From: Desulfotomaculum sp.
GTDB taxonomy: Bacteria; Bacillota; Desulfotomaculia; Desulfotomaculales; Desulfohalotomaculaceae
DNA: 64,000 nt
NCBI GenBank assembly: GCA_017656165.1
Contig: JACDOL010000002.1
Location: forward strand, 700 to 64,699
Reading direction: 5' to 3'
The translations under genes and the position numbers were made by a program. The notes below the pieces were generated by a model that worked only from the letters and a program-made list of their open reading frames with translations, was not told where the DNA came from and searched no databases. Positions 3,389 through 61,160 of this stretch are shown one piece after another (the first letter of the stretch is position 1; the number at the start of each line of letters is the position of its first letter).

Positions 3389-3409
3389 ACGCAGCCAAGG
3401 TATTTACAA
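3389..3409 (+). repeat. Intergenic repeat family, copy 1 (truncated core ACGCAGCCAAGGTATTTACAA)
   Basis: The 17-nt GCAGCCAAGGTATTTAC matches copy 24331-24347 exactly and differs by one deleted T from copy 54328-54343. The 14-nt GCCAAGGTATTTAC also occurs at 30337 and 61067. Confidence 0.55.
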
Positions 3410-3489
3410 CTTCTATTTATCTCCAGCAGGGAACTAGAAGCAGTAGCAGAACTGTTAAAGCATAGAATAAATTGAAAGGACGGTAAAAG

Positions 3490-24311: not shown

Positions 24312-24372
24312 AGAAAGTACAAGTTTTGACGCAGCCAAGGTATTTACCGGAGAAACGATAACCGGCGAATTC
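24312..24372 (+). repeat. Intergenic repeat family, copy 2 (modules A+B)
   Basis: AGAAAGTACAAGTTTTGACGCAGCCAAGGTATTTACCGGAGAAACGATAACCGGCGAAT aligns almost base-for-base with 54309-54366. Confidence 0.75.
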
Positions 24373-30321: not shown

Positions 30322-30428
30322 TGTAGATAACAGCTAGCCAAGGTATTTACCGAAGAAAGCGGTAACCGGCAAATCCGGGTGTTTTCGGAGTGTAAATACC
30401 TTGGCGGTGATAAAACCTAAGGTTTTTC
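30322..30428 (+). repeat. Intergenic repeat family, copy 3 (hairpin form: module B, inverted core, module D)
   Basis: GCCAAGGTATTTAC (30337-30350) and its exact reverse complement GTAAATACCTTGGC (30392-30405) flank a 41-nt spacer. GGCGGTGATAAAACCTAAGGTTTTT follows. Confidence 0.8.
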
Positions 30429-30534
30429 CGCCCCGGGGAAATGATGGAAGGAATGTAATAATTAATAATAATAGGCCATATAATGGTAGTGCAGATTAAT
30501 TACCCCCAAATGGCCTCTGTCTGGAGGTCTAATA

Positions 30535-44812: not shown

Positions 44813-44857
44813 TTAGATAGTTTGAGTCATGGGCGGTAGTAAGTCCGAATGTTTTTT
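44813..44857 (+). repeat. Intergenic repeat family, degenerate copy (left edge TTAGATAG plus module D only)
   Basis: TTAGATAG matches the left edges at 53211 and 30323. GGCGGTAGTAAGTCCGAATGTTTTTT matches about 20 of 26 nt of module D at 54465-54490. Confidence 0.4.
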
Positions 44858-49949: not shown

Positions 49950-50210
49950 ATATTTTAAAGCCTGTGAACGGAAGAGTAGGTTGTGTTACCATGTTTCAGA
50001 GAGCCCGGGGGAGGTGGAAGCCGGGTACATGGCCGCAGTCGAAGATCATCCGGGAGGCGTACAGCTGAACACTCAATATTGTGGGTCAGTAGGCTGTACC
50101 GGTGGCACCGGCGTTAACGGTGTTAGAGTGATCAGGCTGAATATGCCTGTTCACAAGGGTGGTACCGCGGAGAAGAGTAATCCGTCCCTTGGGGGCGGTT
50201 TTTTTTATTT
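49950..50210 (+). promoter_or_regulatory. T-box leader (isoleucine specifier) with intrinsic terminator
   Basis: AGAGA and GGTGGAAG stem-I elements, an ATC specifier in GAAGATCATCC (50045-50050), the T-box sequence AAGGGTGGTACCGCGG (50155-50170), and the terminator CCGTCCC-ttg-GGGGCGG plus T8. Confidence 0.88.
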
Positions 50211-50227
50211 TACTTTCAGGAAGCATA

Positions 50228-50277
50228 ATTTTTGACTTAGTCAAGGTATTTACCGGAGAAAACGATAACCGCAAATT
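50228..50277 (+). repeat. Intergenic repeat family, copy 5 (module B) inside the ileS 5' UTR
   Basis: TTTTGACTTAGTCAAGGTATTTACCGGAGAAAACGATAACCGCAAAT aligns with 24325-24368 and 54321-54366. Confidence 0.7.
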
Positions 50278-50362: not shown

Positions 50363-53152
50363 ATGGATTATGGTAAGACATTAAATCTGCCCAAGACGGA
50401 CTTTCCAATGCGGGGCAACCTGCCCCAGCGGGAACCTGAAATATTAAAATGGTGGGAAGAAATTGACATTTATGGTCAGGTTCAGAAAAAGAACAAGGGA
50501 AAACCTAAATTTATTCTGCATGATGGGCCGCCCTATGCCAACGGCCATATTCACCTTGGTCATACTTTGAACAAGGTTTTAAAAGATATCATAGTGAAAT
50601 TTCATTCTATGTCCGGTTATGATGCTCCCTATGTGCCGGGATGGGATACTCATGGCCTGCCCATTGAACAGCAGGTAATTAAAAATTTAAAAATTAACCG
50701 TCATGAACTTGATCCGGTAGAATTTAGAAAAAAATGTAAGGAATATGCTTTAAAGTTTGCAGGAATACAAAAAGAAGAATTTAAACGACTTGGTGTACGT
50801 GGTGACTGGGATAATCCCTATTATACCCTTTTGCCTAAATATGAGGCTAAACAAATTCGTGTATTTGGTGAAATGGCCAAGGCCGGGTATATATACAAAG
50901 GGTTAAAACCTGTCTACTGGTGTGCGGATTGCGAAACTGCACTGGCAGAAGCCGAAGTTGAATATGGTGAAAAGACTTCACCATCTATATATGTAAAGTT
51001 TCCTGTGTCAGATGGTAAGGGATTACTGCCTGAAGACAACACATATGTGGTCATTTGGACCACCACCCCCTGGACACTGCCAGGAAACGTGGCCATTACT
51101 TTACACCCGGAACTGGACTATGTATTGGCTCAAATAGGCGAAGAAAAACATCTGCTGGCCCAGGAACTGTTAGAAAACTACATTGAAACTGCCGGTTTAG
51201 AAGGTGCACAAGTTCTGGAAAAGTTCAAAGGGGAACAATTGGAAAAGGTAGTATGCAGGCACCCGTTTATGGAACGCCATTCACTGGTGATTTTAGGTGA
51301 CCATGTTACCACTGAAACTGGTACAGGATGTGTGCATACAGCTCCTGGTCATGGTGAGGAAGACTTCCAGGTTGGTAAGAAATATAACCTCCCTGTGGTT
51401 TCTCCAGTGGACAGCCGGGGGATTTTTACTGCAGAGGCTGGTAAATTTGAAGGAATGAAAATTTGGGAAGCAAACAAGGCTGTAATAGAAGAATTACAAG
51501 AACAGGGAAAACTTGTGCATGTAGATAAAATTCAGCATTCATATCCTCACTGCTGGCGCTGTAAAAATCCTGTTTTCTTCCGGGCTACAGAACAGTGGTT
51601 TGCTTCGGTGGAAGGTTTCCGTAAAAAAGCACTGGAGGCCATCCGCAGCAGGGTTAAATGGATTCCTTCCTGGGGAGAAGATCGTATATACAATATGATA
51701 GAAGGACGCGGTGACTGGTGCATATCCCGCCAGCGCGTTTGGGGAGTTCCTATTCCCATTTTTTACTGTAAAGAATGCGGTAAGGAACTAATTAATGAAG
51801 AGACTATTAGCCACCTGGAAAAAATATTTGCAGAGGAAGGCTCTGATGCCTGGTTCTCCAAAAAGGTTAAGGAACTGCTGCCGGAAGGAATTAAATGTGA
51901 AAATTGTGGAGCTGCAGAATTTGATAAAGAGAAAGACATCATGGATGTGTGGTTTGATTCCGGATCCAGCCATATGGGAGTTCTTCAGCAGCCAGAGTTG
52001 TGGCCTGACCTACGCTGGCCTGCTGACCTTTACCTGGAGGGCAGTGACCAGCACCGTGGATGGTTTAATTCTTCCCTCTCTACTGCCATTGCAGTAACAG
52101 GAGAGCCGCCTTATAAAGCAGTATTAACTCACGGTTTTGTAGTAGATGAAAAGGGACGCAAAATGTCTAAATCCCTGGGTAATGTTGTGGACCCGTTAAA
52201 GGTAATTAAACAAATGGGTGCTGATATTTTGCGCCTGTGGGTATCATCTGCTGATTACCGGGCAGATTTAGCAGTGTCAAACAATATTATCAAACAGTTG
52301 ACAGAAGCTTACCGTAAGATAAGAAACACTGCCCGGTTTCTTTTGGGTAACTTGAAGGATTTTGATCCCGAGAAGCACAGTTTACCCTATAATGATTTAC
52401 TGGAACTGGATCGCTGGGCACTTCTGCGCCTGCAGAGACTAATAGACCGGGTACTAAAGGCTTATAAAAATTACGAATTCCATGTGGTTTATCATGCTGT
52501 TCACAATTTCTGCGTGGTAGATATGAGTGCCCGTTACCTTGATATTATTAAGGACCGCCTGTACACCTCTCTGCCGGAATCCAGGGAACGGCGGGCAGCA
52601 CAAACGGTACTGTATGAAGTGCTGGACGCTTTGGTCAGGCTGCTGGCACCGGTACTGGCCTTTACCAGTGAAGAAATTTACCGGCATATGCCTAAGCCTG
52701 AGGATAGTCCCATAAGTGTGCAGCTACTGGATATGCCCCAGTTAAAAGATGAGTACATTGATGTCGACTTGGAACAAAAGTGGGACCGCCTGATGCTGGT
52801 GCGGGCAGAAGTACTAAAATATCTAGAAAAAGCCAGGAAAGAGAAGTTTATTGGTAATTCACTGGAAGCAGCAGTCCAAGTCTATGCTGATGATGAGCTG
52901 TATAATTTCTTAAAATCGATGGAAGATCAGCTGGCAGAAATATTTATTACCTCCCAGGCTTACCTAAATAAAGGTATTCCTGAAGGGGAAAGTGTGAGTG
53001 AAACAGTACCCGGCCTGGCTGTTAAGGTAGAAAAAGCTGTGGGTAAAAAATGTGAGCGTTGCTGGATGTATAATGAAGAAGTTGGGAAAAACAGTAAACA
53101 TCCTGCTATCTGCCCACGCTGCGCGGCGGTTATGGAGCAGTTAGAAAAATAA
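50363..53152 (+). CDS. ileS: Isoleucine--tRNA ligase IleS
   Basis: HIGH-type motif (PYANGHIHLGH), KMSKS, and the C-terminal zinc CxxC...CxxC. ATG 50363 lies 8 nt after AGAGGTGA. Confidence 0.95.
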   Translation: MDYGKTLNLPKTDFPMRGNLPQREPEILKWWEEIDIYGQVQKKNKGKPKFILHDGPPYANGHIHLGHTLNKVLKDIIVKFHSMSGYDAPYVPGWDTHGLPIEQQVIKNLKINRHELDPVEFRKKCKEYALKFAGIQKEEFKRLGVRGDWDNPYYTLLPKYEAKQIRVFGEMAKAGYIYKGLKPVYWCADCETALAEAEVEYGEKTSPSIYVKFPVSDGKGLLPEDNTYVVIWTTTPWTLPGNVAITLHPELDYVLAQIGEEKHLLAQELLENYIETAGLEGAQVLEKFKGEQLEKVVCRHPFMERHSLVILGDHVTTETGTGCVHTAPGHGEEDFQVGKKYNLPVVSPVDSRGIFTAEAGKFEGMKIWEANKAVIEELQEQGKLVHVDKIQHSYPHCWRCKNPVFFRATEQWFASVEGFRKKALEAIRSRVKWIPSWGEDRIYNMIEGRGDWCISRQRVWGVPIPIFYCKECGKELINEETISHLEKIFAEEGSDAWFSKKVKELLPEGIKCENCGAAEFDKEKDIMDVWFDSGSSHMGVLQQPELWPDLRWPADLYLEGSDQHRGWFNSSLSTAIAVTGEPPYKAVLTHGFVVDEKGRKMSKSLGNVVDPLKVIKQMGADILRLWVSSADYRADLAVSNNIIKQLTEAYRKIRNTARFLLGNLKDFDPEKHSLPYNDLLELDRWALLRLQRLIDRVLKAYKNYEFHVVYHAVHNFCVVDMSARYLDIIKDRLYTSLPESRERRAAQTVLYEVLDALVRLLAPVLAFTSEEIYRHMPKPEDSPISVQLLDMPQLKDEYIDVDLEQKWDRLMLVRAEVLKYLEKARKEKFIGNSLEAAVQVYADDELYNFLKSMEDQLAEIFITSQAYLNKGIPEGESVSETVPGLAVKVEKAVGKKCERCWMYNEEVGKNSKHPAICPRCAAVMEQLEK

Positions 53153-53164
53153 GATGTTATTGGC

Positions 53165-53210
53165 TGCCCCGGGGAATGATTTTTGACACATCATTTCCCG
53201 GGGTTATTTG
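53165..53210 (+). terminator. Rho-independent terminator after ileS
   Basis: CCCCGGGGAATGAT ... ATCATTTCCCGGGG long stem followed by TTATTTGTT. Confidence 0.75.
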
Positions 53211-53211
53211 T

Positions 53212-53307
53212 TAGATAGCAGCCAACCAATGTATTTACCGAAGAAAACGATAGCCGGTAGGGTTCGATTTATCAAACCTATCAGCCGGAGGGAAAGCGCC
53301 GAGTATA
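53212..53307 (+). repeat. Intergenic repeat family, copy 6 (modules B+C), left direct repeat of the SASP island
   Basis: GTATTTACCGAAGAAAACGATAGCCGG...GATTTATCAAACC...CAGCCGGAGGGAAAGCGCCGAGTAT aligns along about 95 nt with 54328-54418, with a few mismatches and two small indels. Confidence 0.8.
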
Positions 53308-53434
53308 AAAAATTATTTAACAAAAGTTGTTTTATCAGTAAGATATATGATAAAATTGAGTGGGTTAAGATATTTGGCATTATTTGGTATTGCATGGAAT
53401 GTAAATCAAATTATCTGCCGGAGGTGAACAAATA

Positions 53435-53710
53435 ATGAAATGTACCATACATCCGGAAAACATATCCCAGTTAAGCAGGGATCAAATGGAAGAATTATTG
53501 TTTAGACTTCTGCAGCATGTAAACCGTACTTTTGTTTATAATACTGGCCCCATTGAATTTTCCAACCGTGTACTAACCGAATTGATAGAATATGATTTAA
53601 TAGACTTGCAGCAGGGTGAGGGATGTGGTGGATGCTGTTCATGTTCAACACCTTCTAAGCCTAAAAAAGCGGGAAAAATAATTGAATTTCCTAAGAAAAA
53701 TGATTTTTAA
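53435..53710 (+). CDS. Hypothetical 91-aa protein with a Cys-rich C-terminal patch (GCGGCCSCS)
   Basis: Strong RBS GGAGGTG 7 nt before the ATG, and coding-like composition. No family recognised. Confidence 0.55.
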   Translation: MKCTIHPENISQLSRDQMEELLFRLLQHVNRTFVYNTGPIEFSNRVLTELIEYDLIDLQQGEGCGGCCSCSTPSKPKKAGKIIEFPKKNDF

Positions 53711-53916
53711 GAAGGATTTTTGGCTTTGTAATCTGTATATATGCCTTTTTTAATTCTTTGGGTGATAACACCGCCAATACGTCCCGCTTCTTTAGCATTT
53801 AATGATCCCCAACCATACCGGCGAATTTTTTCACCTAGGCCGAGTTCTTCGGCCACTTCCATTCTCAACAAGTCTTCCTTAGTAGTTTCCTTTTTTTTCT
53901 TTTTTTTGCCTACCAC
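53707..53916 (-). CDS. Small acid-soluble spore protein, alpha/beta-type-like
   Basis: MEVAEELGL and EAGRIGGVITQRI resemble the two alpha/beta SASP signatures. GTG start at 53916 follows a GGAG RBS. The longer ORF-track version (to 54168) runs antisense through the glycine riboswitch. Confidence 0.65.
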   Translation of the reverse strand: MVGKKKKKKETTKEDLLRMEVAEELGLGEKIRRYGWGSLNAKEAGRIGGVITQRIKKGIYTDYKAKNPS

Positions 53917-54084
53917 TGTATCATCTCCATTGTGTTTTTTTAAAAAAACACCCGTAATATTATTAGTATTAAAAGCTAAAATATTATTAAAAAGTGCCTG
54001 TAAAATAAAGAATTTTTTTAGCAGGAAATTGAAAAAAGAAGAAGAATTCATCAAATTAAAAATATTTAATAACGGCTGAATGAA

Positions 54085-54300
54085 GGTAGCAGGAGAGGTC
54101 TGGGCTAACCGGGCGCCGAAGGAGCAAGGCTGTCTGCTGGCTGGGCAGCAGTCGAAACTCTCAGGCAAAATGACTGTTACCGGACAGAACTCTGGAGAGA
54201 TCCGTAGAGGACACCCACGGGGAAACCCTGGAAAATAGGGTAATCTCTCAGGTAAACGGACAGAGAAAACAGCATTTTTGGGTTTTCTCTGTCTTTTTTA
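54085..54300 (+). promoter_or_regulatory. Tandem glycine riboswitch with terminator expression platform
   Basis: Aptamer 1 is GGAGAG...CGCCGAAGGAGCAA...CTCTCAGGCAAAATGAC. Aptamer 2 is CTCTGGAGAG...CTCTCAGGTAAACGGACAGAG. The terminator is CAGAGAAAAC...GTTTTCTCTG plus a T-tract (54261-54299). It is upstream of gcvT. Confidence 0.88.
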
Positions 54301-54307
54301 ATATACC

Positions 54308-54490
54308 AGAAAGTATAAGTTTTGATGCAGCCAAGGTTTTACCGGAGAAAACGATAGCCGGCAAATGTAGGGCTTTGATTTATCAAACCAACCAGCCGGA
54401 GGAAAAGCGCCGAGTATTGAGGAGCGAGGCGGCGTTTCACTATCCGAAAGTATAGTTTTAACCCAGCGGTGATAAGACCGGAGGTTTTTT
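54308..54490 (+). repeat. Intergenic repeat family, copy 7 (longest: modules A+B+C+A'+D), inside the gcvT 5' UTR
   Basis: It contains every module seen in the other copies. Module A is AGAAAGTATAAGTTTTGAT. Module B is GCAGCCAAGGTTTTACCGGAGAAAACGATAGCCGGCAAAT. Module C is GGGCTTTGATTTATCAAACC..CAGCCGGAGGAAAAGCGCCGAGTAT. A second A-like segment reads GAAAGTATAGTTTTAAC. Module D is AGCGGTGATAAGACCGGAGGTTTTTT. Confidence 0.8.
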
Positions 54491-54523
54491 AGACATACTA
54501 GAAACAGTTATGGAGGTGCAAAT

Positions 54524-55618
54524 ATGGATAACTTAAAACGTACTCCACTTTATAACGTGCACAAAGAATTAAATGCTAAGATGGTGGAGTTTGGCGGCTG
54601 GGAAATGCCGGTACAGTATGAAGGAATTATTAAAGAACATAAGGCTGTCCGGGAGCGGGCAGGACTATTTGATGTATCACACATGGGAGAGCTGCTGCTG
54701 GAAGGTCCCGGTGCTTTAGATGTACTGCAGCGTTTAGTCACAAATGACATATCTAAAATAGATATTGGGCGTGCTGTTTATACACCAATGGTTAAAGAAG
54801 ATGGTGGGACATTAGATGATTTATTAATATATAATTTAGGAGCAGACCGATACCTCTTGGTAGTCAACGCATCCAATAAAGATAAGGATTTAAACTGGTT
54901 AAAAGATCACTTATCAGGTAAGGTAAATGTGGCAGACAAGTCTGAAGATTATGCACTGCTGGCACTTCAAGGACCATTAGCTCAGCAGGTACTGCAGAAA
55001 ATTACCTCACTGGATTTAAAAGCAATAAAATATTATCATTTTACCATGGGAGTAGTGGCAGGAATTCCCTGCCTGGTTTCCCGCACAGGGTATACCGGGG
55101 AGGACGGTTTTGAACTCTACTGCCACCCAGAAGAAGCAGAGAAATTATGGCAGGCAGTTCTAACCACCGGGAAAGAAGATGGAGTTGTACCGGCCGGACT
55201 GGGGGCCAGGGATACCCTGCGTTTTGAAGCATGTCTGCCTCTTTATGGAAATGAGCTGTCTGAAGAAATTAATCCGCTGATGGCTGGACTAGGTTGGACA
55301 GTAAAATTTAATAAAGGTGACTTTATTGGAAAAGAGGCGCTGGCAGAAATTAAAGATGCTGGTGTCAGCCATAAACTGGTTGGCTTAAAAATGGTAGAGA
55401 GAGGAATACCAAGAACAGGTTACCCTGTGGAGTTTAATGGTCAGGAGGTAGGGTGGGTTACTACCGGAAGTTATGCTCCAACATTAAACGCCAACCTGGC
55501 CCTGGCCTATGTAAAGCCTGGATATGCAGAAGAAGGAACCGAACTGGAGATTGTTATTAGAGGGAAGGGTTTAAAAGCTGCAGTTGTTCCAAAACCTTTT
55601 TATAAAAGACAAAAGTAA
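54524..55618 (+). CDS. gcvT: Glycine cleavage system aminomethyltransferase GcvT
   Basis: [15 protein letters not shown] and FDVSHMG motifs. RBS GGAGGTG. Confidence 0.93.
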
Positions 55619-61049: not shown

Positions 61050-61064
61050 CCTCCAGTCTAATGA

Positions 61065-61160
61065 CCGCCAAGGTATTTACAATGTAAAAACACGCCGGCA
61101 CATATACCTGAACGAACTCCTCACCCTTCGGGTGCCTGCGTAAAAACTTATACTTTTTGA
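61065..61160 (+). repeat. Intergenic repeat family, copy 8 (truncated core plus inverted module A)
   Basis: CCGCCAAGGTATTTACAA lies at 61065-61082. CGTAAAAACTTATACTTT at 61139-61156 is the reverse complement of AAAGTATAAGTTTTTACG, which is module A as found at 54311-54328. Confidence 0.55.

Follow-up and report, generated by a model that had tools for sequence, protein, structure and literature searches.

Two copies of a lineage-specific dispersed repeat, very probably inserted independently, bracket a conserved block between ileS and gcvT in Desulfotomaculum sp.

The stretch of DNA analysed here (the window) comprises 64,000 nucleotides (nt) of Desulfotomaculum sp. (assembly GCA_017656165.1, contig JACDOL010000002.1, positions 700 to 64,699, forward strand). 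Between ileS (isoleucyl-tRNA synthetase) and gcvT (aminomethyltransferase), it carries an open reading frame (ORF) of 91 amino acids (aa), called ORF91, a convergent gene related to those of the small acid-soluble spore proteins (SASP) and a tandem glycine riboswitch. The three are bracketed by two direct repeats, copies 6 and 7 of a dispersed family. An earlier note, made from the sequence alone, had proposed either that the bracketed segment is an inserted or excisable cassette or that two terminators each received a repeat independently. The second proposal is very probably correct. The ileS terminator, ORF91, the SASP-like gene, the riboswitch and gcvT would form an ancestral block, vertically inherited, to which copies 6 and 7 would have been added independently and in this lineage only. 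Most likely, this family represents a non-autonomous mobile element of the kind of the MITEs (miniature transposable elements with inverted repeats) or BOX repeats. The acquisition of the segment as a cassette is refuted; removing this false lead leaves a conserved gene arrangement and, beside it, a modular repeat family.

Gene order in relatives without repeats

Related loci were located by GcvT and by an alignment of the SASP and annotated by tblastn, ORF lists and Rfam. L085 is Desulforadius tongensis DSM 29799; L086, a Peptococcaceae metagenome-assembled genome (MAG); L005/L087, MAG MES5; L006/L089, Desulforamulus aquiferis. The closest relative, D. tongensis, has exactly the gene order of the window: DivIVA, YggU, T-box, IleS (85%), ORF91 homologue (68%), SASP (77%), glycine riboswitch, GcvT (81%) and GcvH. 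The Peptococcaceae MAG has IleS, ORF91 homologue, SASP, riboswitch and GcvT. ORF91, SASP, riboswitch and gcvT follow one another in MES5, with another upstream neighbour; the more distant L088 and D. aquiferis have ileS, SASP, riboswitch and gcvT, without ORF91. Six repeat modules were sought in the loci of these relatives, with up to 20% mismatches, and none was found in any of them. The comparison of the ileS-gcvT junction had been named beforehand as the one that could refute mobilisation by the repeats, and it does so: because the order ileS, ORF91, SASP, riboswitch, gcvT is identical in L085 and L086, which carry no repeat module, the segment is not a mobile cassette. The SASP-like gene, ORF91 and the riboswitch are native to the locus.

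The spacers differ where the genes do not. The ileS-ORF91 spacer measures 282 nt in the window versus 147-159 nt in L085, and the spacer from the riboswitch terminator to gcvT 224 nt versus about 80 nt in L085 (45-95 nt across L085, L005 and L086); both are about 120-150 nt shorter in D. tongensis. In spacer alignments, copies 6 and 7 are window-only blocks placed between the conserved terminators, the ORF91 promoter-like block and the gcvT ribosome-binding site. The spacer from the T-box to ileS is 170 nt long in the window versus 44-56 nt in L085, L086 and L088. Since this surplus corresponds to copy 5, the T-box leader and the glycine riboswitch leader have both gained a repeat 3' of their terminator. 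The window-only surplus in alignable spacers, together with a family scattered behind many terminators, supports the proposal of independent gain.

The direct repeats of the ileS-gcvT interval

Pairwise alignment of 53234-53306 with 54338-54417 shows direct repeats that agree at 66 of 73 aligned bases and differ by one 7-nt indel. A repeat search of 52500-55200 delimits a 24-nt block (53234-53257 and 54338-54361, 96% identical) and a 47-nt block (53260-53306 and 54371-54417, 89% identical); the chance expectation for such matches is zero. The left 22 nt of copy 6 (53212-53233) align only loosely with copy 7, and the part 54418-54490 of copy 7 has no counterpart in copy 6. The repeats of about 95 nt announced in the earlier note are therefore real, their length being slightly generous: firm homology covers about 73-85 nt. 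The contents of the bracketed segment (91-aa Cys-rich ORF, convergent SASP gene, tandem glycine riboswitch) were correctly described, as seen from the ORF list, PF00269 and Rfam.

Copy 6 has the ileS terminator on one side and the conserved ORF91 promoter block on the other; copy 7 follows the riboswitch terminator and precedes the gcvT ribosome-binding site. Module C, which forms their interior, is found only in these two copies within the 64-kb window. Their left modules differ, copy 6 having the TTAGATAG type and copy 7 the A type. The longest stretch in which the two agree perfectly is 16 nt, which is short and a poor substrate for efficient RecA-dependent recombination.

Copy 7 carries a second A-like piece (54441-54463), 79% similar to its own left module A (54308-54325), just 5' of module D. 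It may result from two abutting partial elements or from an internal duplication.

Composition of the segment and deletion joints

The bracketed segment is AT-rich, as had been observed (36.6% GC versus 41.7% for the window). The suggested check of GC content and codon usage gave no deviation from the local range. ORF91 (GC 0.359) and the SASP-like gene (0.390) lie inside the local range (55 window ORFs: 0.419 +/- 0.029, minimum 0.353). Their z-scores for GC at third codon positions (-1.6 and -1.1, respectively) and for codon preference (+1.4 and -1.8) are all within 2 standard deviations. The low GC content of the segment stems from these two small genes and from two promoter spacers that are very rich in AT (22-27% GC). 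The dip is common to D. tongensis, whose orthologues are displaced in the same relative way (0.42 and 0.45 versus 0.48).

A 35-kb contig of run X1 crosses the region with 0 differences. No deletion joint between copies 6 and 7 was found in the assembled contigs of runs X1 and X2, in which rare forms would not show; the proposed deletion between the repeats thus finds no support there. The joints seen in these contigs belong to other family members, such as a B-D form without C. No recombinase is encoded among the ORFs of 53153-54523 (ORF list, Pfam).

The dispersed repeat family

The family has nine copies in 67.7 kb (the 64-kb window and a 3.6-kb extension). The ninth is found at the end of a Logan contig of the same organism that reaches 3.6 kb beyond the window. 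The core TTTACCGGAGAAAACGATAACCGG and the adjacent GCAGCCAAGGTATTTAC recur at 3391, 24314, 30334, 50220, 53212, 54308 and 61064. The copies are non-coding module mosaics of 20-183 nt: a left piece (AAAGTATAAGTTTTGAY or TTAGATAG), then core B, then a variable interior. Some copies also have a right arm, inverse to the beginning of B, and a tail D that closes with a T run. No constant part extends beyond about 20 nt across the mosaic and truncated copies. Copy 3 is the hairpin form (-44.2 kcal/mol, z -3.3), and further hairpin-form copies are present in assembly contigs; copies 2, 6 and 7 are without a matching right arm, and the arm of copy 5 is decayed. Copy 4 is a weak match (5 mismatches in 24) and a possible deleted form. 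No consistent target-site duplication was found at the edges of copies 3, 6 and 7; the A/A' pair of copy 7 can be read as a duplication, yet it belongs to the repeat in other copies too.

All nine copies are on the + strand, and eight of the nine begin 0-25 nt after a terminator hairpin and its T tract, copy 8 being the only one without a preceding terminator. Under random orientation, nine of nine copies in the same orientation would have a probability of about 0.004 (own calculation). Almost all genes of the window are also on the + strand; therefore, targeted strand-specific insertion and selection at the RNA level are not separable here. That copies 6 and 7 are in direct orientation is a consequence of this family-wide bias and no sign of unit borders.

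Copy number and distribution

Logan contigs of the source sample were matched to copies 7 and 3 at 80% likeness (single-copy depth: about 137). The summed contig depth is about 5,200 for the core (about 38x single copy), about 1,700-2,000 for module C (about 12-15x) and about 6,500 for the right arm of copy 3 (about 47x). Many assembly contigs end at the repeat core. As rough figures, the genome holds about 40-50 copies of the family, of which about a dozen (about 12-15) are of the B+C type. The earlier description of copies 6 and 7 as the most similar members holds inside the window but not genome-wide: one 87-nt contig differs from copy 7 by 3 other letters and 2 gaps, versus 4 other letters and 7 gaps for copy 6. 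Since there are about a dozen B+C copies and at least this one contig is closer to copy 7 than copy 6 is, nothing singles out copies 6 and 7 as a pair.

Pattern scans were made for the core, for the two-armed hairpin, for the right arm joined to module D and for the left arm joined to the core. No member of the family was found in 185,579 species-representative genomes (three patterns), which gave chance matches only (Pseudomonas; one Eubacteriales, in coding-like sequence; one Bacteroidales). None was found in JGI metagenome contigs, where a single match lies inside an ORF, or in viral contigs (pattern scan). Plasmids and phages, searched by BLAST with copies 7 and 3, gave none either. Rfam 15 had no match to the repeat at the gathering threshold, and only chance-level ones at E <=10 for copy 3 and the whole segment. 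The family appears private to this lineage.

Origin of the repeats

A family that is private to one lineage, occurs in mosaic and truncated copies and includes a hairpin form fits a young non-autonomous mobile element. It would consist of the hairpin form (copy 3) plus many truncated or mosaic derivatives, and it would accumulate strand-specifically, just downstream of intrinsic terminators. Its insertions would be neutral for gene expression. Several points weigh against this explanation. The mobility of the family is something that we infer and that is not demonstrated. Shuffled sequence folds as well as copies 6 and 7 do. Among the window copies, clear terminal inverted repeats are found in copy 3 only. 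The spacers of the relatives are too diverged for exact insertion points to be placed. The copy numbers derive from summed contig depth, which is not true copy number, and Logan contigs omit rare variants, so that a rare excision between the copies could escape.

An alternative that is possible, though rather improbable, is a strand-specific mobile element of undescribed type that seeks terminators and lands 0-25 nt behind intrinsic terminator hairpins. If so, an element placed behind a T-box or a glycine riboswitch would join the regulated 5' untranslated region (UTR) and could alter the expression that follows read-through.

It is unlikely that the repeats, rather than being selfish DNA, are modules kept by selection for a function, be it in the 5' UTR or in RNA stability, as a small-RNA unit (with A for promoter and D for terminator) or as a regulator's binding site ahead of many genes. 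Such a role would be consistent with the orientation of all nine copies, which is that of the downstream gene, with the position of most of them 30-130 nt ahead of a start codon, with the presence of copies 5, 6 and 7 inside regulated leaders or promoter regions, with the strong hairpin of copy 3 and with the T run that ends module D. Replication-strand bias would explain the orientation equally well, almost all window genes being on the + strand. Moreover, the orthologous sites in relatives have no repeats, the copies are mosaics and truncations with so short a constant part, and copies 6 and 7 have no fold signal. No convincing sigma-70-like promoter was found in the modules (promoter scan), and they correspond to no Rfam family. 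A search for RNA runs of this organism returned none.

Local copying or gene conversion, by which copy 7 (or copy 6) would derive from its neighbour 1.1 kb away, is very unlikely. The two are close together and are the sole B+C copies of the 64-kb window, but about 12-15 B+C copies lie elsewhere in the genome, the 87-nt contig is nearer to copy 7, and the left modules differ.

The sites could also have carried the repeats ancestrally, D. tongensis, the Peptococcaceae MAG and MES5 having lost them; the spacers of these relatives are too diverged for clean empty sites to be recognised. This is hardly conceivable: three or more separate, precise losses would have had to occur at each of the three sites, and the whole family would have had to disappear from every genome searched. 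Copies 6 and 7 have also kept a likeness of about 90%, whereas synonymous differences between these genomes have reached saturation.

The cassette, a unit with the repeats as its borders that would have brought in ORF91, the SASP-like gene and the riboswitch, has for it the roughly 90% identical direct repeats and a segment that is AT-richer than its flanks, and it retains practically no likelihood given the same genes in the same order in repeat-free relatives, the lack of a recombinase, the local composition, the lack of a deletion joint in contigs, the short perfect identity and the membership of the repeats in a family of about 40-50 copies.

On independent insertion, the preferred explanation, the repeats have lengthened three regulated leaders or spacers (those of ileS, ORF91 and gcvT). 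These would provide a natural test of how much extra 5' UTR control elements of this sort tolerate.

Comparison with known repeats

The nearest analogues would be the modular BOX repeats, the classical MITEs and the REP/REPIN-type elements (PMC3184786). BOX (boxA-boxB-boxC of Streptococcus pneumoniae), RUP and SPRITE are, like the family described here, short non-coding intergenic repeats with modules in variable combinations, many copies per genome, hairpin potential and a frequent location in untranslated regions. SPRITE resembles a terminator and favours the 3' ends of genes (PMC3184786). The present family has no sequence similarity to these three and is found in a Peptococcaceae-type sporeformer; nearly all its copies start just after an existing terminator, and all are on one strand.

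Classical MITEs are likewise small (about 50-190 nt), multicopy, intergenic and lineage-specific, and copy 3, with its perfect 14-bp terminal inverted repeats and long hairpin, resembles them. The differences are that most copies of this family, including 6 and 7, are without the right arm and that no target-site duplication was identified. We know of no insertion sequence (IS) that mobilises the family. Nothing similar to the repeats was found in the genome, viral, plasmid and phage collections searched with the repeat patterns or with copies 3 and 7.

The REP/REPIN elements (RAYT transposases) and the PATEs derived from IS200/IS605 are strand-biased extragenic hairpin repeats that occur as singlets and inverted doublets, often behind genes, and need no signature of inverted repeat plus duplication. 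Comparable forms are found here: a singlet arm in copies 1 and 8 and an inverted doublet in copy 3. Unlike REP/REPIN, the unit is not a GC-rich palindrome, its arm of 13-14 nt not being palindromic. TTGAT or TTGAC stands directly before several repeat copies and is reminiscent of the short, fixed target that IS200/IS605 elements have; in contrast to such a target, the conserved module A extends to the left of TTGAY.

Integron attC cassettes and skin-like excised elements have a superficial likeness only, namely genes bracketed by direct repeats near sporulation genes. They were rejected: here no integrase or recombinase is found, the repeats lie scattered over unrelated loci, and repeat-free relatives keep the bracketed genes in place. 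Two other candidates were also rejected. By-eye comparison of the repeats with sigma-H, sigma-54 and Spo0A boxes was unconvincing, and for a tRNA-derived origin the apparent TTCGA T-loop-like motif has no supporting stem.

Genes and control elements of the block

The coordinates of the block and of the repeat copies are given in Table 1.

Table 1. Features of the ileS-gcvT block and repeat copies of the window (a)
Feature	Position	Strand	Characteristics or basis
Repeat copy 1	3391..3410	+	Short, GCAGCCAAGGTATTTAC only; after terminator
Repeat copy 2	24314..24366	+	A+B; 12 nt after terminator
Repeat copy 3, hairpin form	30334..30430	+	Perfect 14-bp inverted arms GCCAAGGTATTTAC / GTAAATACCTTGGC around 41 nt, then module D
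Repeat copy 4	44813..44857	+	Left edge TTAGATAG and diverged module D; 6 nt after phoU terminator
T-box leader of ileS	49955..50192	+	Rfam
Repeat copy 5	50220..50277	+	A+B, decayed right part to about 50320; between T-box terminator and ileS start
ileS (isoleucyl-tRNA synthetase)	50363..53152	+	ORF list; 85% aa identity to D. tongensis IleS
Intrinsic terminator of ileS (b)	53167..53210	+	Hairpin CCCCGGGGAATGAT...ATCATTTCCCGGGG, T-rich tail
Repeat copy 6	53212..53307	+	Left edge TTAGATAG, module B (core TTTACCGAAGAAAACGATAGCCGG), module C (...CAGCCGGAGGGAAAGCGCCGAGTAT)
Promoter-like block of ORF91 (c)	53327..53356	+	TTGTTT, 18 nt, TGaTAAAAT
ORF91, 91 aa, Cys-rich	53435..53710	+	Homologues in L085, L086 and L005
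SASP-like gene, atypical alpha/beta-type, 69 aa	53707..53916	-	PF00269, 29.9 bits (cut-off 22), E 5.6e-7
Divergent spacer (d)	53917..54079		22% GC
Tandem glycine riboswitch	54080..54299	+	Aptamers 54080-54186 and 54190-54265; terminator 54254-54270 / 54282-54298, T tract
Repeat copy 7	54308..54490	+	A 54308-54325, B 54327-54366, C 54371-54417, A-like 54441-54463, D 54466-54490 (GCGGTGATAAGACCGGAGGTTTTT)
gcvT (aminomethyltransferase)	54524..55618	+	PF01571, PF08669; first gene of gcvT-gcvH-gcvPA-gcvPB
Repeat copy 8	61064..61160	+	Short B arm 61064-61083, inverted module A 61141-61156

a Positions are those of the window. A, B, C, D: repeat modules. b The hairpin was read by eye. c Promoter function is suggested by the motif. 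d The promoters of the SASP-like gene and of gcv are presumed to lie here.

The longest ORF of ileS begins at a GTG (50351); the start that aligns with relatives (MDYGKT) is at 50363. A simple terminator scanner reported 0 terminators for the ileS hairpin. Its stem sequence CCCCGGGGAA(A)TGAT (53167-53181) recurs directly 3' of copy 3 (30430-30445), which may be a further short shared piece or chance.

The promoter-like block of ORF91 is kept in D. tongensis and MES5 (AAGTTGT...TG.TAAAATT), the remaining spacer being not conserved. ORF91 has a GCGxCxSC cluster and a basic KIIxFPKK tail. Non-synonymous differences between its homologues are low (pN 0.16-0.25, versus pS about 0.8, synonymous sites being saturated); ORF91 is therefore a real gene under purifying selection. 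Pfam and NCBIfam gave nothing above threshold for it. In an AlphaFold2 model of moderate overall confidence, the N-terminal 60 residues are confidently helical (helical hairpin) and the tail with the Cys cluster is disordered; comparison of this model with PDB folds gave no match at E 0.001. Its family comprises the window protein, those of three relatives (L085:5263-5526, -; L086:5174-5458, -; L005:5059-5328, +) and one further representative, found by a profile search of 1.84 billion proteins that also returned one spurious repetitive protein. The ORF91 family is very small and confined to a few Peptococcaceae-type genomes.

The SASP-like gene is convergent with ORF91 and overlaps its stop by 4 nt. 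It has no NCBIfam model match. A divergent GWG.LNAKEAGRIGG block is kept in its orthologues, and dN/dS versus D. tongensis is 0.16. At least eight related loci (L085-L089, L091, L101, L108) have an orthologue adjacent to ileS, to gcvT or to both. The location of this gene beside ileS is a conserved feature across several Peptococcaceae or Desulfotomaculum-type genomes. The locus offers a SASP-like gene conserved between ileS and gcvT of Peptococcaceae-type sporeformers, accompanied in the closest relatives by a tiny family of Cys-cluster proteins. In L088, L089, L091, L101 and L108, the SASP-like gene is directly 3' of ileS and convergent, with or without an adjacent gcvT.

The two glycine aptamers match RF00504 with 68.7 and 47.2 bits (gathering score 32); RF03166 gives 107 bits, just under its gathering score of 110. 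Aptamers and terminator ahead of gcvT form the same tandem riboswitch arrangement in L005, L006, L007, L086 and L088.

Other observations on the loci of relatives

In D. aquiferis, a tandem duplication of about 240 nt, unrelated to the repeats and containing N bases, lies inside the ileS-SASP spacer (L006:4542-5021), and ileS (L006:1800-4586) is split over four frames, probably by draft-assembly errors. In MES5, ileS is not adjacent to the ORF91-SASP-gcvT block; the upstream region (L005:1-3032) has a DedA-like gene, another membrane protein gene and two tandem, near-identical antiporter-like genes.

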